Below are positions 2,445 through 32,946 of a stretch of DNA of 64,000 nt, one piece after another. Source of the stretch: a virus; the IMG/VR virus record IMGVR_UViG_3300020037_005798, positions 4,764 through 68,763 of that record; one strand, written 5' to 3'. The first letter of the stretch is position 1; each line of letters opens with the position of its first letter. The notes under the pieces were generated by a model. That model saw only the letters and a program-made list of their open reading frames with translations, was not told where the DNA came from and did no database searches. A program made the translations under genes and the position numbers.

Positions 2445-3281
2445 TTAATTGTTATAAATTTTTTCCCAAAATGTTTTTATTTCATCATTTTTGTCTTTAG
2501 AAGAAATTAATATTCTTCCTTTTAATTGAGGTGCTCTACTTCCAGCAACAATGCTATCATTTAAAACATCAAAATTAATGTATCTTTCATCCCCCTCAGC
2601 AACTAATTTTCCTAAAGCGGTAACTTTAGATGCAAATATTCTTTTAAGCTGTCCTGTAAGAGCTATTTCACTTCCTACTACTTCTTCTTTACCATTATCT
2701 TTGATATATTTATCAGTAATGTGAGCAGCATAAATTCTGTAAGGGCTAATTTGTCTAAAAATGTCAATTTGATCTAAAAACCATTTTCTTGTGTGTTGGT
2801 AACCTGCACCATCAGGTAATGTAATAACAGATTTCCATTCAGGATCTCCTACTTCATACTGTTCACCATAAGAACCACTTCCTAATTTAGGTCTATTAAA
2901 GTTTTTACCTATAATAGAGTTCATATAAGCCTTTGTTCCTCCAATTTCAGATAAAGCATCTAAATCTGATAGACCATCAATAATTAAATATTCATACTTT
3001 CCTTTATTCTCTAATAAAAGATTACGATATGAAATATAATTTTGAAAACTTTCATATAAATTAGTAGACTGATCTGTATATGTAGACATTTTTCTAGCTT
3101 TAATGTATTCATATCCTCCTTTTTCAAGGTCTAATACTAAAGCATTGTTTTTTGTTGTGAAATCTCCAAGTATTGTACCTTTACCCATTTTAGGTATAGA
3201 TAAAATAACCAGATCTCTTGGTGCTGATAAGTGAATATCACTTATTTCATCGGGTAATCTCAATTCTTTTTTTTCTTCCAT
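2445..3281 (-). CDS. AAA_24/Sak4-like ATPase (recombination)
   Basis: Walker A SIPKMGKG, LDLEKG, Walker B LIIDG, and AAH motif. Confidence 0.75.
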   Translation of the reverse strand: MEEKKELRLPDEISDIHLSAPRDLVILSIPKMGKGTILGDFTTKNNALVLDLEKGGYEYIKARKMSTYTDQSTNLYESFQNYISYRNLLLENKGKYEYLIIDGLSDLDALSEIGGTKAYMNSIIGKNFNRPKLGSGSYGEQYEVGDPEWKSVITLPDGAGYQHTRKWFLDQIDIFRQISPYRIYAAHITDKYIKDNGKEEVVGSEIALTGQLKRIFASKVTALGKLVAEGDERYINFDVLNDSIVAGSRAPQLKGRILISSKDKNDEIKTFWEKIYNN

Positions 3282-3299
3282 GTTTATCTAATTTAATTG

Positions 3300-3657: not shown

Positions 3658-4734
3658 TTACAAAAATTCAATCTTATTTTTATCAAAAAATTCTAAAGAT
3701 TTTCTTAACCAATTAACTTCAACTTCTTCTTTTGTACTAATAATGTATATTATAGCTAGTTTTTCAGGGTTGTCATATTCATATGCCATACATCTGTTTA
3801 TTTTTTGAGTAAAGTTTTCACCATTACTATCAAAGTCTGCTAATATTACACAATTTAATGGTTTATAAGTAGTTCCTGTATTACCAATTTTAACTACTGC
3901 AAGATGATTTCCTATTCCTTCACAAAATTCTTGAAAGATAGTTTTATCTTTTGTTTTATTATGAAAAGATGGTATTCCTAAAGAATCAGCAATCTCTGTT
4001 CTTCCACAAAAGACTAAAGCTCTTTTATCTCCTAATTGTTTTAAGAGTTTTTTAGCTTCTATTACTTTACAAGGACTGTTTTGTAATATAGATTTTCTTT
4101 TTAACTTTAAGAATTTAGTATCTTTCCCTTCTTCAGTTAGTTTTTTAATTACATAAGATACATTATCATAATAAGCTTTTTCAGTTTTAGCTTTACCACT
4201 ATATAATTTAATAGTTTTAGCATCTAGTTCAGTACTTATTATTTTAATTCTATAATCACTAATTACTTTCTCATCAATAGCTTTTTGAATAGAATATTTA
4301 GCAACTACTCTAAGTTTCAAACTTCTTTTTAGATAAGATTCAGTTTGAGAAGTTAAAGTACCAGTTAATCCTAATATACAAGTATTCTTAATAAACAATT
4401 TTTGACAAGCCAATACTTGTGAAGTAGATAATAAATGAATCTCATCAATGATAACAATATCATAAATCTCAGTAACAAGTTTTTTGAGGGATAGATGAGT
4501 AGTGTATGTAACATTACTATCATCATAATTCATAGTCTCAAAATCTCTTTTCCAAGAATCTTTGATATTGTTATCAGGATAAGCTATTAATATTTTTGGA
4601 TTATTATATTTTTCCAATATTAGAATACTAGTTCTTATTTTACCAAAACGTGGGCATAAATTAAGGATACCTCTTTTTCCAGTTCTTTCAAAAATCTGAG
4701 AAAACTCTAATTGTCTTTGATCTCTTAAAGTCAT
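3658..4734 (-). CDS. Superfamily 2 helicase
   Basis: Q-motif LRDQRQ, CPRFGKI (Walker A), IIDEIH (DExH), GLTGT (motif III), QKINR (motif VI). Confidence 0.85.
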   Translation of the reverse strand: MTLRDQRQLEFSQIFERTGKRGILNLCPRFGKIRTSILILEKYNNPKILIAYPDNNIKDSWKRDFETMNYDDSNVTYTTHLSLKKLVTEIYDIVIIDEIHLLSTSQVLACQKLFIKNTCILGLTGTLTSQTESYLKRSLKLRVVAKYSIQKAIDEKVISDYRIKIISTELDAKTIKLYSGKAKTEKAYYDNVSYVIKKLTEEGKDTKFLKLKRKSILQNSPCKVIEAKKLLKQLGDKRALVFCGRTEIADSLGIPSFHNKTKDKTIFQEFCEGIGNHLAVVKIGNTGTTYKPLNCVILADFDSNGENFTQKINRCMAYEYDNPEKLAIIYIISTKEEVEVNWLRKSLEFFDKNKIEFL

Positions 4735-4946
4735 ATATGTTTATTTAAATAATACTTTAATTCCATTGCACTTCTTTTAATAGAACCAGCTAATCTTGTT
4801 CCATTAATACTATTAACTCCATACAATTGTGTACTTCCAAATATAGTATGTCCTTTCTGAAGTTTAGCTAAAGCAATACCTTCATCAATTTTGCTTTCAA
4901 ATCTTTTTAATTCTTCCTTAATCTTCAATAATTCTTTCAGATCCAT
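4731..4946 (-). CDS. Hypothetical protein
   Basis: 71 aa, coupled to neighbouring genes. Confidence 0.55.
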   Translation of the reverse strand: MDLKELLKIKEELKRFESKIDEGIALAKLQKGHTIFGSTQLYGVNSINGTRLAGSIKRSAMELKYYLNKHI

Positions 4947-12760: not shown

Positions 12761-13372
12761 TTATTTCTTTTTAAATTGTTCAAACCATTCATCTACATTT
12801 GTTGTATTTTCTGAAATTAAATTTTCGGAAACACCCATTTTATGAGACATATCATAATAGAAATTAAATGCCATTTTTTTAGCTTCTTCCTCACTATAAC
12901 TTCTTTCTTGTTTATTTATTTGCCATTTAGCACCATTAATGAAATGTTTAGTGGTTATTTTTTGATGTTTTGCATATCCTGGAGGAACCAACTGACCTGG
13001 TGGTATTGATTGCTTTTCTCCTTGTTTATTTAAAGGCCATATAAAACTTTTATGAGCATAGTTTTTAGCAGCTTCTTCAAGTGTTTCTTGTTTAGGTTTA
13101 GCATAACATTCATTATCTGATTGAGATGTTTCAGCTCCACAGTATTTACAAATATGTGTTTCTTGTTTATCAACGTGGGTAATTGTAATACCTCTTTCAA
13201 TTTCTTGTTTAGGTTCTTTTATTAAACTTTCCATTGCTATATTATGACAATGTTCTATATGTCTTGAAGTGTAATCTTGTTTAAGTTTAAAAAGATAACA
13301 TTCCCCGCAAACAACAGAACAATTATGAAAAGCACAAAAGCAAATATTTGGTTGGTCTATTTCTTTGTTCAT
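12761..13372 (-). CDS. Mosaic hypothetical protein with PKQE repeats
   Basis: EPKQE, KQET and KPKQETLEEAA segments; Cys pairs. Confidence 0.65.
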   Translation of the reverse strand: MNKEIDQPNICFCAFHNCSVVCGECYLFKLKQDYTSRHIEHCHNIAMESLIKEPKQEIERGITITHVDKQETHICKYCGAETSQSDNECYAKPKQETLEEAAKNYAHKSFIWPLNKQGEKQSIPPGQLVPPGYAKHQKITTKHFINGAKWQINKQERSYSEEEAKKMAFNFYYDMSHKMGVSENLISENTTNVDEWFEQFKKK

Positions 13373-17191: not shown

Positions 17192-17219
17192 TTTTATAAA
17201 ATATTTAATTAATAATAGT

Positions 17220-17293
17220 ATGGGAGATAGGACTCGAACCTACAACCTACGCTATGTTTAAGTGCGTTGCTCTACCACTTGAGCTACTCCCAA
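17220..17293 (-). tRNA. Atypical tRNA or tRNA-like RNA with 11-nt anticodon loop
   Basis: TGGGAG/CTCCCA acceptor, D-arm GCTC-AAGTGGTA-GAGC, T-arm GTAGG-TTCGAGT-CCTAT, anticodon arm ACGC-ACTTAAACATA-GCGT. Confidence 0.8.
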
Positions 17294-19443: not shown

Positions 19444-19471
19444 GTTTATATATAATTATTGTTTAATAAAT

Positions 19472-19503
19472 AAAAAACACCACACTATTTCTAATGTGGT
19501 GTT
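19472..19503 (-). terminator. Intrinsic terminator closing the ncRNA array
   Basis: AACACCACAUUA-GAAA-UAGUGUGGUGUU then UUUU. Confidence 0.75.
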
Positions 19504-19509
19504 AGTTTT

Positions 19510-20432
19510 TGTAATAACCTCTCGTAAAAGTAATTACATTGTAAACCTAGTATTAGCACCCTCTTGTCTTATTAAATCATCCAGTAAATACATACTGTTG
19601 CATTTCATTTAATAAGAGTAGGGTCACGTAGTTAATATGACGTTTGCTGATTGCTACCAATTAAGGTGTAATACAACGGTTCTTTAACTACTTGCTGAGA
19701 ACTCCCAAGAGTTTATAATAGCATATCTCATACAGCTATATCTCTTCTACTATATTTCTATAGAGTTTCTATCAGGGTTTAGATTTTTTAAATATGCTTC
19801 CAAATATATTACTATATGAATTTTAGAATTATAAGAGCAAGACCCTCTTTTGCTGGACTAAATGCAAACGCTGGATTTTTACTTGACCTATTACGTGGTA
19901 TTTCCAAAGCCCACCACTTATAATTCAAGGACTGTGATAACCTCATCAATACTCCAGTTAGATTAACGTATCCGCTATCGTTACCTTAATTATTCCATGC
20001 ATTGTTTGCGGTTATGGAAGCTGGTTTATATCAACTACATACAGTTTATGTATTAATCCTGTATGGGATTGTTAAAGTACAATTCTAAACTTTTATTAGA
20101 CTATCCTATCAGATATGCCCAAGAGTTCAGGTTGTTGGTGCTAACCCTCTCTCAGAGACTGCTGCATATCATTCATACCCAACGCGTATTTAGATAAGAT
20201 AGTTATTTTAAAAACCACACACCCTTCAAGATAGGAATAAACATTTTCAGCATACTAACGTTGTCCATTGACATTCTACATACTTACTTATCATACTCAA
20301 CAAACGTAACACTTCTTGTAGTGTCGTAAATCCAGGTTATAAACTTTGGTCCCAATCCTATCTTCAAGTCTTATAATAGGAGTTATCCAGTAGGCCAACT
20401 TCATTACTTGTTTGTCTTTCTATGTGTGATTT
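19510..20432 (-). ncRNA. Tandem array of structured non-coding RNAs (about five domains)
   Basis: About 920 nt without a credible ORF, GC-richer than flanks; closing stems define 20212-20432, 20100-20203, 19928-20086, 19826-19926 and 19542-19781. Confidence 0.7.
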
Positions 20433-20437
20433 CTATC

Positions 20438-29465: not shown

Positions 29466-29861
29466 CTAAAAGGTTCCATCTTTCAAAGTTTTTTCTAACC
29501 ATTCTTTAGCTTCATCAACACTACTAGACATATGTCCATTACAGTTTTCACTTGCAGTCATATTAGCAACATCCATTACTATTTCTCTAAACTCTTCAGT
29601 TAATCTATTATTATTTCTAATAATACTTAATAAAGAAATACCAGAATTAAAAGTTGCTATTTGTCTCCACATTAGAGTACCAGCATCACTATTATCCTTA
29701 CTACCACCTTTTCTACCTGCATATCTAATAGCAGTATTATCAAATCCAAAGAACTGCATATTTCTTACAGCATTAACAGCATAAATCTCTTCTTGAGTTT
29801 CTCCTGTTAAATCCCAACCAATAGGATTATTTTTTTCGTCTTTTACGATTTCTAATTTCAT
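29466..29861 (-). CDS. Hypothetical protein
   Basis: 131 aa ORF. Confidence 0.6.
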   Translation of the reverse strand: MKLEIVKDEKNNPIGWDLTGETQEEIYAVNAVRNMQFFGFDNTAIRYAGRKGGSKDNSDAGTLMWRQIATFNSGISLLSIIRNNNRLTEEFREIVMDVANMTASENCNGHMSSSVDEAKEWLEKTLKDGTF

Positions 29862-29889
29862 AGTATTTGTTTTTAAGATTGATAAAAAT

Positions 29890-29917
29890 AAAAAACCCCC
29901 ATATTACTATGAGGGTT
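29890..29917 (-). terminator. Terminator after tmRNA
   Basis: AACCCUCAUA-GUAA-UAUGGGGGUU then a U-run. Confidence 0.7.
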
Positions 29918-29919
29918 AG

Positions 29920-30178
29920 TAAAAATTTCGCTTTTCTTGCGGAATTATGCTACCATTCTTAATGGTGCATTATTCATTTGGATAACTTTTGAAGTTATTG
30001 TTTAATAATTCTCGTTGAGTCCTACTGTATTGCTGTCAAATCCCGTTATCCCCTGATTTACCGCTTGTTATTTAAACTCGTAGCGATGAAACGAGGCAAT
30101 CAACTTATAAACGGATTTCTAGTGGAGATAGAGGGAGTTGAACCCTCGTCCAAACAATGTTCAAAAACAAGTCAACAA
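29920..30178 (-). ncRNA. ssrA: Circularly permuted (two-piece) tmRNA
   Basis: Acceptor piece GGAC-GAGGG-UUCAACU-CCCUC-UAUCUCC-A (30123-30151) precedes coding piece starting GGGGAUA...GAUUUGAC (30053); G3:U70 pair; tag frame SKVIQMNNAPLRMVA* at 29945-29992. Confidence 0.88.
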
Positions 30179-30202
30179 ATTATTATGCTGTAAATATATA
30201 AA

Positions 30203-30502
30203 TTAAAAATCATCTGCAACACCATTGTAAGCTAAATGACTATAATCAACATAAGCGTATTTAGAATTTCTTGCATTATGATTTTGTATTCTATGAAATT
30301 TATCTTCTTTTGCTAAACCACAATTTAATTTGCGCCAAACTTGTTTATAGTTTTCATCTGTTATTTCTTTAAAATCAGTATAAATTCTAAGATTAAATTT
30401 AAGCTGTTTTGTAGTAAGATTTTTAACTCTTCTTATTTCTGCTTTATTTAAATTTAAAAGAAGTAATTTATTTTTAAATTCTGTTGGGTTTAATTTAGCC
30501 AT
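30203..30502 (-). CDS. Hypothetical protein
   Basis: 99 aa basic protein. Confidence 0.55.
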   Translation of the reverse strand: MAKLNPTEFKNKLLLLNLNKAEIRRVKNLTTKQLKFNLRIYTDFKEITDENYKQVWRKLNCGLAKEDKFHRIQNHNARNSKYAYVDYSHLAYNGVADDF

Positions 30503-30694
30503 TTTATTTAGGTTTATAAGTTATTAATATAGTCAAATGAGCATCATCACTTTTAACAATTTTAGTACCATCTTCATTCCAATAACTTTTAGTTGATAAA
30601 ATAGTCAAACTATCTATTATTGTATTGTACTTACAAAAATCATTAAGTAAAGAATTAACATCTTTAACAGTACCAGATAATGTTGTTTGCATAA

Positions 30695-30955
30695 TTATTC
30701 TTCTTCTAAACTATATTCAACAATGTTTTCATGTATGTTTAAACATTTCCAGGTAACTTTTCTATAACCATAAAAATCAACTCTATCTCCTTCATTTAAA
30801 TGTATTTCTTGATCTAGTATGATATAAACATTTTGATTTTCTTTATCAAGAATAAATCCTTTAGATTTATATTCCTTTTCATAATAATCAAAACATTCTT
30901 TTAAAGAAGTAGCAGAAGTAAAGATTTCGTTACTAATTTCAAATTTTGTTTTCAT
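30695..30955 (-). CDS. Hypothetical protein
   Basis: 86 aa ORF just downstream of the twister-like RNA. Confidence 0.55.
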   Translation of the reverse strand: MKTKFEISNEIFTSATSLKECFDYYEKEYKSKGFILDKENQNVYIILDQEIHLNEGDRVDFYGYRKVTWKCLNIHENIVEYSLEEE

Positions 30956-30971
30956 AAATTTCTTTATTTAT

Positions 30972-31068
30972 ATTCAATCCCTCTGTATTCAGTTGTAAGG
31001 TAGGTAGTTATTTTATCCTTATCTCAACTGGTCATCCTTGGGAAATGACAATGATACATTGCTTAAAT
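30972..31068 (-). ncRNA. Twister-like self-cleaving ribozyme (copy 1)
   Basis: P1 AUUUAA/UUGAAU, CAA, P2 UGUA/UACA, P4 GUCAU/AUGAC with loop UUCCCAAGG, P5 CAGUUG/CAACUG, GAGGG pseudoknot strand. Confidence 0.75.
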
Positions 31069-31069
31069 T

Positions 31070-31510
31070 CATAAGGGTAAGAAGTGTAATAGCTTTGAGG
31101 GTTAGTCCCCTCTGCTTACATTACACTATACCCTATGTTAAAATCACTTGTCCAAATTCTAGTGGAATAGAATAGCAATACTTAATGCTCTAACTCATTC
31201 TATCTCTACAATAAACACAACTGCTAGTACAGTTTATAATTCTCATACGTTAAACATCGTCTACTCTATGTGAGGGAAATTCCATGAATTATTGTTTATC
31301 TTCAAGCAAGTGATTTATATTATTAAAACAGAAGGTTTGACGTTAGTTACACTCCCACTAGGAACTACACTTATTTATGACGGACTAAACCGCATCCTAA
31401 CTTCTATTTTATATTATTAAACTCTCACAAGGTTGCACCTTGTAGGATTTACTTAGTTGCATAAAATCCTTTTTCTCTACCACTATATCTAATATTAGTG
31501 TAGCCTTGAG
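31070..31510 (-). ncRNA. Second array of structured RNAs (four domains)
   Basis: Long hairpin 31070-31137; AAAUCACUUG/CAAGUGAUUU-closed domain 31141-31316; AAAAUAGAAG/CUUCUGUUUU-closed domain 31325-31410; multi-hairpin domain 31422-31510. Confidence 0.65.
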
Positions 31511-31668
31511 ATTTTAATTCTTCTCTGAGTTCTGATTTAACATTATCTGATAAATCAATAAAAACTGTTTTAGGTGCTGCTTTTCTTGCCATTGTTATTT
31601 AAATTTAATTGTTAATAGTTGAACCCTTTGATTTTTGATCTCAGGGAACAACTAAAAAGACTTTTATT

Positions 31669-32838
31669 TTATTTTATTTTACTAGTTACATATTCAGAAG
31701 CTATATTTCTCATAATACTAAAAGCAATATATTGATTTGTATATCCCCCTTCTGAAGTAGCGTCACGATTAATTAATATTCTGTTTGCTTCCCATCTAAC
31801 TATTGAAAATCTAGTTGTAATAACAGATTTTAAAGGTAAATCAATATTAAATGCTTTAAGCATATAAATTATTTCAGGGAATTTAGCAGAATCATCAGTA
31901 ATAATATAATCTTCTTGAGAATCTGAAGTAATACCATCAATGATTTTTGCTTTAACTAATTGGTCATAAAGATATTCAGGAAGAACATAATCAAAAGTTG
32001 TTGTACCCATAAGACCAGCTAATTTTTGCATTAAAGAGGAGCCAAACTTTTTACCACTAGCAACCATGTCTTTAATAACTTCTAAATTAGATTCAGAAAA
32101 TTTTCTTGGTTTCATATCATTATATCCTGAAGATAAAACAAGGTGCATACATCTATGATCAATACCTTCAGTAATAAAATCTCTCATGGCTTTATCAAAA
32201 TCACTTTCAAGAGCTAATCTGCTTTCATTAATCTCAATATTATTTAAACTAACATCAAAATTAATTTCTTTATTATCATCAGAACATCTAATACCTTGTC
32301 TGTATAAATTAAAACAATCACTACTTCTTTCATACATACTACCTAAAGCATTAGTGAAAATAGGAGTTCTTTCTAAAGCAAAATAATGATCAAAATTTGA
32401 TATTACTCTCTCTAATTCACTATTCATAGGAATATAATAAGTAGTTTTACCATCTTCACCAATCATATCAGGATTAACCAAAGATTTAATTGTACAATTT
32501 CCTTCATCAAGAGCATTAGAAATAGTTTCTCTTAAAGCCATCCAACCAGTCCATTTAGGACCCATATTAGAAGTAATAGATGTATCAATACCATTTACAG
32601 TTAATACTTTAACAGGATTATCTCTGTGAAGTACAACTTTAGTATCTAACTTCATCTCTTCTGTACCTCTAAATACTTTAGGCACACAATTATTTCTAAA
32701 ATACCAAGCTAAACTAAACTTGTTACCACTACCAAATTCACCAATTTTACCTTCAACTCCTCTTTTTGTAGAAGAACCAATAAGTGTTAAATCTTCAGTC
32801 TCAATAAGACCATCGTTTGTTACTTTTAAATAAACCAT
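31669..32838 (-). CDS. GHKL/HATPase-like ATP-binding protein
   Basis: VTNDG, LIGSSTKR, IGEFGSGNKF and LRETISNALDE motifs. Confidence 0.65.
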   Translation of the reverse strand: MVYLKVTNDGLIETEDLTLIGSSTKRGVEGKIGEFGSGNKFSLAWYFRNNCVPKVFRGTEEMKLDTKVVLHRDNPVKVLTVNGIDTSITSNMGPKWTGWMALRETISNALDEGNCTIKSLVNPDMIGEDGKTTYYIPMNSELERVISNFDHYFALERTPIFTNALGSMYERSSDCFNLYRQGIRCSDDNKEINFDVSLNNIEINESRLALESDFDKAMRDFITEGIDHRCMHLVLSSGYNDMKPRKFSESNLEVIKDMVASGKKFGSSLMQKLAGLMGTTTFDYVLPEYLYDQLVKAKIIDGITSDSQEDYIITDDSAKFPEIIYMLKAFNIDLPLKSVITTRFSIVRWEANRILINRDATSEGGYTNQYIAFSIMRNIASEYVTSKIK

Positions 32839-32864
32839 TTCTTTTCTTTTTAGTTATTATTAAT

Positions 32865-32946
32865 TTTAGTCTGATCATCAGTATTCAGTGACTAATCTGA
32901 ATATACAGCTCTCTACATTAACACATATGAGAGAGCTGTTTCACTA
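32865..32946 (-). ncRNA. Hammerhead ribozyme (type II, pseudoknotted)
   Basis: GAAA - stem III CAGCUCUC/GAGAGCUG - UA - stem I UAUUCAG/CUGAAUA - CUGAUGA; loop I UUAGUC pairs with 3' GACUAA; predicted cleavage between 32904 and 32903. Confidence 0.88.

Follow-up and report, generated by a model that had tools for sequence, protein, structure and literature searches.

A repeated 14-nucleotide linker in a phage locus adjoins members of two conserved families of structured RNA

When a short AT-rich sequence occurs twice, letter for letter, between predicted RNA folds of a virus, it can be asked whether it represents a joint between RNA modules, the scar of an insertion, a transcription signal or a coincidence. 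Such is the case in a stretch of 64,000 nucleotides (nt), hereafter the window, which covers positions 4,764 to 68,763 of the IMG/VR virus record IMGVR_UViG_3300020037_005798 and constitutes most of this 68.8-kb viral contig (coordinates are window positions unless another sequence is named, L-numbers designate compared stretches and X-numbers sequencing runs). The sequence TTTATATTATTAAA is found exactly at 31314-31327 and 31408-31421, these being the sole two copies in the window at one mismatch or fewer. A first-pass annotation, made from the letters alone, had placed this 14-mer at both internal junctions of an array of four unrelated folded RNA domains lying 5' of a twister-like RNA, and had viewed the AU-rich linker as a processing or insertion site. 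Taken as a whole, this observation is partly confirmed and its interpretation partly supported. The 14-mer is borne out at both junctions, and the conserved linker/variable unit layout is real; the domains are not all unrelated, as two of them are members of large conserved RNA families, with a structure upheld by covariation in the complete one, encoded on the minus strand and arranged in a layout that recurs in other phages with a different unit between the repeats. We lean towards the reading that the locus is a cluster of co-oriented small structured RNA modules, of which the joints would be processed, the conserved blocks would serve in exchange between phages, and one family, B, would act in trans.

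The RNA modules are encoded on the minus strand and not, as first annotated, on the plus strand. The fold z-score is -6.6 for the minus strand (-168.5 kcal/mol) vs. -3.0 for the plus strand, the invariant G-U pairs of family B are compatible with the minus strand, and where genes for transfer RNA (tRNA) or transfer-messenger RNA (tmRNA) lie within 1.5 kb in homologous loci (7 of the 20 loci scanned with Rfam), the RNA is co-oriented with them in 7 of 7. The domains therefore lie 3', and not 5', of the hairpin at 31593-31668, for which the label twister-like finds no Rfam match at E values up to 10. Read along the RNA, the order is family-A 3' hairpin, linker 1, V0, linker 2, family-B RNA and D1, namely:

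31418-31451, minus strand: family-A hairpin, extended, directly 3' of the stop codon of a 47-codon open reading frame (ORF)
31422-31442, minus strand: family-A core, i.e., the 3' hairpin and the 3' strand of the closing helix, exact in the window
31408-31421, minus strand: linker 1, UUUAAUAAUAUAAA on the RNA strand
31328-31407, minus strand: V0, an 80-nt variable hairpin unit with a closing stem of 7 base pairs (bp)
31314-31327, minus strand: linker 2, same sequence as linker 1, the last three A's being the first pairs of family-B helix P1
31141-31316, minus strand: family-B RNA, complete, 176 nt
31070-31137, minus strand: D1, a long stable hairpin directly after the family-B RNA (-28.8 kcal/mol, z -8.2)

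Considering the window only, the evidence for the linker repeat is weak. At least two matches to the 14-mer at one mismatch or fewer occur in 37 of 100 whole-window shuffles, and an exact 14-mer direct repeat of any kind within 150 nt occurs in 14.5% of 200 simulated whole windows. When the 713-nt gap alone is simulated by a Markov model, the count is 29 in 20,000 copies. The 14-mer is not a general motif of the phage, as 16 matches vs. 15.2 expected are found in the window at up to two mismatches. On this basis, the caution of the first-pass annotation that chance was not excluded was justified. Conservation decides against chance: in two other phage contigs, the same pair of 14-mers stands around a different hairpin. 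In these contigs (L077 and L078, also retrieved among the family-A loci as L045 and L051), a family-A RNA is followed by the 14-mer, a hairpin (52 and 63 nt, respectively), the 14-mer again and then, from P1 onwards, a family-B RNA, where the intervening hairpins share no sequence with the 80-nt unit of the window; comparison of related phages shows, as such, a unit that differs between linkers that are kept. A scan of 2.9 million IMG/VR contigs for two 14-mers separated by 50-80 nt returned these two phage contigs and two tandem repeats of giant viruses, and nothing else. Among metagenome contigs, L120, near-identical to the window, keeps both linkers and V0, while L110 has a family-B copy after 12 nt of linker, with a coding region before it and neither V0 nor family A within 190 nt. 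A 19-nt query made up of linker and P1 sequence retrieved 30 metagenome loci, 28 of which were dismissed as chance matches in AT-rich DNA. Elsewhere in the window, exact 14-mer direct repeats at 13081/13156 and 13084/13201 merge into longer shared stretches within a 203-codon minus-strand ORF (12761-13372).

Family B is the complete member of the cluster. Comparison of 29800-32900 with contigs of four runs shows that, in every run, 31201-31237 is matched by short contigs that have high depth and unlike flanks. A first candidate for this 36-nt high-depth stretch, namely a repeat of the CRISPR (clustered regularly interspaced short palindromic repeats) type, is rejected because each of 35 phage contigs has the stretch a single time, without arrays; it corresponds to the family-B core and is present, once each, in 2 of 185,579 species genomes, i.e., a Joostella isolate and a Lutibacter metagenome-assembled genome, both from the Flavobacteriaceae, as is Cellulophaga. 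The high-depth contig of run X20 (guessed to be RNA) over the core sums many phages and is uninformative on this locus. The 29-mer core itself is exact in 35 IMG/VR contigs (6.7-306 kb), once each. Around it, a 5' motif is found 52-131 nt upstream in 36 of 36 copies, the window included, and a 3' motif in 35 of 36. This flank architecture defines 26 distinct family-B RNAs of 157-271 nt, the overall range of the copies measured being 157-285 nt. The window matches the full-length family-B profile at 31316-31140 (E 3.4e-34), with a P1 formed from both ends, the 5' motif (CUUGAAGAUAAAC-like) and CUAG in the loops of both P5 and P7. The elements of the RNA in the window are as follows:

31316-31307 with 31150-31141, minus strand: P1, closing helix from both ends
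31306-31304 with 31206-31204, minus strand: P2, 3-bp helix
31300-31293 with 31217-31210, minus strand: P3, enclosing V1 and P5
31292-31236, minus strand: V1, variable arm
31234-31219, minus strand: P5, invariant hairpin, loop 31229-31224
31235-31207, minus strand: 29-mer core, invariant, containing P5, exact in the window
31203-31167, minus strand: V2, second variable arm
31166-31151, minus strand: P7, hairpin abutting the 3' strand of P1, loop 31162-31155

The fold is upheld by an alignment (A4) of 15 sequences, divergent members included, with 47 pairs; the family relationships rest on profile hidden Markov models and pair counts. Standard pairs occupy 89.6% of 694 pair cells vs. 39-44% when partners are slid by one to three columns, and changes on both sides are seen in 22 of 47 pairs vs. 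11.2 +/- 2.1 in shuffles, none of 500 shuffles reaching 22. Unguided, RNAalifold recovered P1, P2, P3, the base of V1, P5 and P7. The loops of P5 and P7 also change in concert in the 51 distinct parsed copies: with CUAG in P5, P7 shows CUAG in 22 copies and CUGA in none; with UCAG in P5, P7 shows CUGA/UGAUA in 20 copies and CUAG in none; the remaining 9 are unclassified (Fisher p 2e-12, a value uncorrected for relatedness, the two states being possibly two clades). In Cellulophaga phage phi4:1, the two loops form six Watson-Crick pairs. From these covariations, family B is modelled as a compact scaffold locked by a loop-loop contact, with an invariant core and two freely variable arms, where the P5-P7 contact could be intramolecular or join two molecules. 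In 27 loci, family B is matched by no Rfam 15 family at the gathering threshold, and in the gap of the window none of the Rfam 15 families, including twister, tracrRNA, tRNA, GOLLD, ROOL and Drum, reaches its gathering threshold.

Family B is widespread. A relaxed 21-mer finds it in 105 IMG/VR stretches, and two contigs contain two cores each, namely 3300037295_000360 (L277/L279) and 3300033067_001736 (L309/L310), 0.7 kb and 2.5 kb apart, respectively. Among cultured phages, blastn of 30900-31700 returned nothing at E 1e-5, while a shorter query at E 10 recovered Cellulophaga phages; those with family B are phi4:1, phi17:2 and the crAss-like phi14:2. In phi4:1, the RNA lies at 1425-1619 of L088 (about 129599-129793 of NC_021788); an annotated hypothetical protein, gp168, falls within it (L088 1442-1600; NC_021788 129616-129774) and is probably not a protein gene. 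The phi14:2 homologue occupies about 1285-1569 of NC_021806, in the early region, at the g002-g003 junction, where two ORF features were withdrawn in 2020. The phages phi4:1 and phi14:2 are unrelated and infect strains of one host species; their V1 arms are nearly identical. The phi4:1 RNA was also compared with DNA of the host family: 5 of 301 genomes have matches of 19-35 nt, none of them in an arm. As for its neighbours, family B starts 8-10 nt after the 3' end of a tRNA in L010, L020 and L026, and adjoins tmRNA in L014 and L018. ORFs resembling GIY-YIG homing endonucleases sit inside the B gene at two places, each with a second, altered copy of B sequence beside the insertion (of the 5' part in L025 and of the 3' part in L086):

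L025, 743-1501, plus strand: GIY-YIG ORF in the 5' part of the B gene
L086, about 520-1180, opposite to the RNA: GIY-YIG ORF in the 3' part of the B gene

The module 5' of linker 1 belongs to a second family, A. The hairpin with stem ACAAGG/CCUUGU that the first-pass annotation had seen does exist, and the 3' element of family A is recognised in it by the stem CAAGG/CCUUG, a loop ending in GCAA and then UGAGAG. The domain that had been drawn around it (31422-31510) does not hold, for it is mostly the 47-codon ORF, and the conserved RNA element is the 31418-31451 hairpin only. The 18-mer at 31422-31439 is exact in 33 IMG/VR loci, and in 31 of these the 5' motif AACUCUCAUCCAAUUGCAGG is found 51-132 nt upstream, where it supplies the other strand of the closing helix as well as the predicted partner of the hairpin loop. 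Searched for on its own, the 5' motif gives 105 IMG/VR stretches (108 matches), with UGAGAG within 235 nt in 77 of 108. Part of the motif pairs with the UGAGAG after the hairpin to form the closing helix, which is lengthened on the evidence of compensatory changes in its flanks. Another part, UUGCA, is complementary to the hairpin loop, which has two main forms; this predicted pairing is conserved, both of its sides having been fixed by the search patterns. At E values up to 0.1, no Rfam match was obtained in 20 family-A loci. In the window, AACUCUCAUCCAAUUGCAGG is absent, a fuzzy search of 31400-31900 having found nothing, and the profile of alignment A2 matches at its positions 72-108 only (31455-31419, E 2.8e-8). 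The window possesses only the 3' third of family A, with the 47-codon ORF in place of the 5' half, and the hairpin is predicted to gain further pairs between the stop-codon region and the beginning of linker 1.

Between the linkers, V0 is limited to this phage lineage. It is identical in the near-identical L120, shows no similarity to any other compared locus or arm, and has no second copy in the window. A complementarity between a UUAGU loop and a downstream ACUAA had been proposed for this domain, of which the presence of both motifs within 31328-31407 is upheld. Its sole Rfam match, to the trans-activating CRISPR RNA (tracrRNA), scores 17.9 bits vs. a gathering score of 70 (E 9.9) and is discarded as chance. 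The D1 hairpin is likewise lineage-specific and identical in L120, and its apical 24-mer has no exact match in IMG/VR; in a relative from run X11, D1 is kept and divergence sets in at 31132, where the B RNA would begin. More generally, the interiors of V1, V2, the arm of A, and V0 differ wholly from phage to phage, and the closing stems are retained. Shared sequence is absent between the five V0 units, as it is between them and 142 other arms and modules; among the 147 unique arms and modules there are no cross-type matches that would betray arms moving between positions; a T-arm-like motif occurs in 4 of the 147. Median z-scores of the interiors, relative like that of D1 to mononucleotide shuffles, are -1.07 for V1, -0.45 for V2, -0.35 for the A arm and -1.94 for V0 (35, 30, 75 and 5 arms, respectively). 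Over 720 nt, L120 is near-identical to the window bar the interior of V1, which is replaced, and three substitutions in conserved sequence next to it; this pattern looks like a conversion tract from another B allele. Moreover, the interiors of V1 or V2 are skipped in contigs of runs X9, X17 and X20.

The structure predicted for the three arrays, i.e., those of the window, L077 and L078, gives the 14-mer a composite nature. The first 3-5 nt of linker 1, UUUA(A) in the window, would lengthen the closing helix of A, the last four would pair with the first four of linker 2 (UAAA/UUUA) and lengthen the stem of V0, and the last three of linker 2 would begin P1 of B. The 6-7 central nt have an unpaired probability of about 0.5-0.96 across the three arrays; for linker 1 of the window, it is 0.56-0.91 over the six central nt and 0.00-0.28 at the ends. 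In these models, a short run of single-stranded A and U separates the two helix ends of which the rest of the 14-mer consists.

The explanation we lean towards combines these elements. Within a leftward gene block and near the tmRNA gene of the phage lies a cluster composed of a truncated A, V0, B and D1, where the two 14-mers are read as module joints, the outer 3-5 nt being predicted to finish the flanking helices and about 7 central AU nt to stay single-stranded. The modules would be transcribed together, as in tRNA/tmRNA clusters, and the exposed AU-rich joints could be the places of cleavage by host endonucleases separating them, the linkers being probably processing sites of a multi-RNA precursor. 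The A hairpin with linker 1, on the one hand, and linker 2 with the 5' part of B, on the other hand, may serve as homology arms, and such conserved blocks would explain the exchange of V0 and of the B arms between phages. Family B would most likely act in trans, by binding a highly conserved component of the host or the phage; the constancy of its core, in which even helices are without variation, suggests that a partner, itself very conserved, recognises its sequence specifically.

Several observations weigh against this explanation. Conservation of the linkers, observed in L077, L078 and L120, fails in L059 and L067, which have the A-hairpin-B layout with degenerate linkers of which the central part is not kept. 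A close relative in run X9 departs from the window within each linker, its contigs being unlike the window beyond 31418 on one side and 31317 on the other (the ends are visible over 30 letters each, and the two contigs possibly come from different genomes); this relative therefore replaces V0 along with the centres of both linkers, and adjoining A and B do not always need the exact 14-mer. Most family-B copies have neither V0 nor a second linker upstream, their flank being loosely AU-rich. Shared descent or recombination of this segment, and not selection on the linker, could account for the 14-mer being identical in three phages. Since family A is truncated in the window, the piece left may be a relic, or may only serve the 47-codon ORF as a hairpin of stabilising or terminator-like type. 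The interiors of V1, V2 and the A arm are weakly structured (medians given above), and the word hairpin therefore applies mainly to the closing stems. Lastly, among the listed runs with the locus, none is on record as RNA.

Of the other explanations, an insertion scar survives best and is nonetheless unlikely. V0 would here be an inserted element and the 14-mers a 14-bp target-site duplication in an ancestral A-B junction. As for a transposon or a miniature inverted-repeat transposable element, exact direct repeats abut a unit with inverted-repeat ends; three phages have three unrelated units at one site; duplicating insertions do occur in B genes, as the GIY-YIG ORFs of L025 and L086 attest; and the B copy of L110 has most of a linker before it, with no V0 or A nearby. 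The further copies or empty site expected of such an element were not found: V0 is single in the window, and no contig in IMG/VR joins A and B with junctions 3-30 nt apart, three matches to this search being due to chance in GC-rich coding DNA. As the five V0 units share no sequence, and give no cross-type match against the 142 arms and modules, they form no element family and have no conserved terminal repeats. Besides, the ends of the linkers are accounted for by the helices they extend. The suggestion that the linker is an insertion site is thus not supported by the IMG/VR contigs or by the units, which are not copies of any compared sequence; the scar keeps its small share of probability because duplications of the homing-endonuclease type occur in these genes.

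Distinctly unlikely is the possibility that the 14-mer is a transcription signal, namely the AU-rich tail of a terminator, a -10-like element (UAUAAA) for the next RNA, or both. A strong stem does stand directly before each 14-mer, AUAUAAA lies just 5' of P1 in several B copies, and B copies usually finish in a short U run. A start 5-9 nt after UAUAAA would, however, remove covarying nucleotides of P1, and elsewhere in the window the 14-mer does not exceed expectation. A consensus scan found no sigma-70-like promoter at the linkers, promoters of the Bacteroidota type falling outside that consensus, and there is no terminator-like site in 30800-31800, where the tails are mixed A/U, unlike those of intrinsic terminators.

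A more ambitious proposal, which we regard as a long shot, would see an RNA island with at least three undescribed families (A, B and a third in 19444-20437) of Flavobacteriaceae-type phages, where B would be a rigid scaffold or a homo-oligomer and the arms and the V0 slot would be exchangeable specificity cassettes, as decoys or guides, in conflict between phage and host or between phages. Such cassettes would explain near-identical genomes that differ in one arm, as well as homing endonucleases targeting the invariant core. Finally, a chance repeat without any role in AT-rich non-coding DNA, however readily shuffles and simulated windows yield one, is barely credible in view of the same pair and layout in two other phage contigs of the 2.9 million and of the local frequency in Markov copies.

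The RNA module cluster we favour has a setting of its own. Recognisable genes of the window encode a terminase, a portal, a major head protein and a virion protein of 1,936 amino acids (aa); the portal is 24-26% identical to those of crAss-like phages, and the phage is therefore distantly crAss-like. Near-identical DNA is present in 19 DNA runs from wastewater, sludge, manure or drinking water, a 20th run containing a small share only. The ORFs lie on the minus strand up to 34200 and on the plus strand from 34373, the G+C content around the locus is mostly about 20-30%, and an ORF-free gap of about 490 nt (30956-31448) contains the repeat. The surrounding features are:

31669-32838, minus strand: gene for a 389-aa protein, followed by the 47-codon ORF
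31593-31668, minus strand: hairpin formerly labelled twister-like, between the 389-aa gene and the 47-codon ORF
31449-31592, minus strand: 47-codon ORF, putatively coding, bordering the gap and covering most of the fourth domain first drawn
30956-31069, minus strand: spacer, weakly structured (z -1.1), reaching the start of the 86-codon ORF
30695-30955, minus strand: 86-codon ORF, bordering the gap
29825-30214, minus strand: permuted (two-piece) tmRNA gene (ARAGORN, Rfam), about 0.9 kb downstream of the RNA cluster

The 47-codon ORF is 100% identical in L120 and has no homologue among loci L002-L083, and the hairpin at 31593-31668 has in L120 a loop 2 nt shorter and one substitution. Relatives retrieved with the 389-aa protein (7 loci, 40-49% identity) show no synteny downstream and no shared DNA of the gap. 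The tag of the tmRNA is PQEKRNFY according to ARAGORN, and in relatives without 30242-30976 the tmRNA gene adjoins the RNA cluster. Contigs of runs X9 and X11 join 30241 to 30977, the small ORFs that separate the tmRNA from the RNA cluster being strain-variable, and a contig of run X17 joins 30699 to 30966 via 9 other letters. ARAGORN also reports a tRNA-Phe with the unusual anticodon AAA on the minus strand (17218-17293).

A third conserved phage RNA element is found at 19444-20437, conserved over about 19540-19700 and probably encoded on the minus strand, which may be what the first-pass annotation had counted as its first RNA array. Of this element, 25 nt (19612-19636) are exact in L009/L038, just upstream of a family-B RNA, and in phi14:2 at 3268-3292, inside the g004-g006 intergenic stretch; a 93-nt match at 74% links it to L046.

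Full-text literature searching returned no description of family-A or family-B RNAs, which apparently are undescribed, and non-coding RNA is unmentioned in PMC7886860. A mining of IMG/VR lists 8,495 unnamed candidate structured RNAs, including tRNA-like ones (PMC10690425); the core motifs of A and B are in neither case present in the 6 of its 9 supplementary files searched, and the families could be among its candidates. For phi14:2, a preprint (10.1101/2020.03.07.982082) describes early, persistent transcription at the g004-g005 and g005-g006 junctions, at a level above that of most protein genes; its text defines no RNA families or structures and does not single out the g002-g003 junction, where family B lies. 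The tmRNA of phi14:2 (4031-4500) falls within the same g004-g006 intergenic stretch, and the RNAs described here may account for part of the abundant early "long non-coding RNA" of this phage. The annotation of phage genomes is almost wholly protein-based, and a short AT-rich repeat led here to two, probably three, conserved RNA families, present in more than 100 uncultured phage contigs and in cultured Cellulophaga phages, without an entry in Rfam 15. A 29-nt core shared unchanged by otherwise dissimilar phages, a covarying contact, arms swapped where genomes are near-identical and repeated invasion by homing endonucleases together point to an important, sequence-specific role, and as phi4:1, phi14:2 and their host can be cultured, the role of family B is directly testable.

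With respect to known systems, family B brings to mind GOLLD and ROOL, which are likewise structured, located near tRNA genes, present in phages or prophages, and folded into multiple helices with a pseudoknot-type contact. Co-transcription with tRNAs has been proposed for GOLLD and ROOL, often near tRNA genes and in prophages, and ROOL averages 581 nt (PMC5737381), compared to 157-285 nt for family B. Both are reported to form multimers (10.1101/2024.12.08.627333). Family B differs from both by a core of far higher sequence conservation, by its Flavobacteriaceae hosts and by the lack of a match to the Rfam models of GOLLD and ROOL. A second likeness, by description only and in another phage group and host phylum, is with phage T4, where families A and B find a counterpart as stable phage RNAs among tRNA genes. 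The tRNA cluster of T4 includes the small stable RNAs C and D (species 1 and 2), and the same region also carries the GIY-YIG homing endonuclease SegB. Lastly, while RNAs A and B have neither the CCA end nor the cloverleaf of tRNA and tmRNA (ARAGORN, Rfam), their arrangement resembles that of tRNA/tmRNA clusters, i.e., co-oriented genes for stable RNAs separated by short AU-rich spacers.

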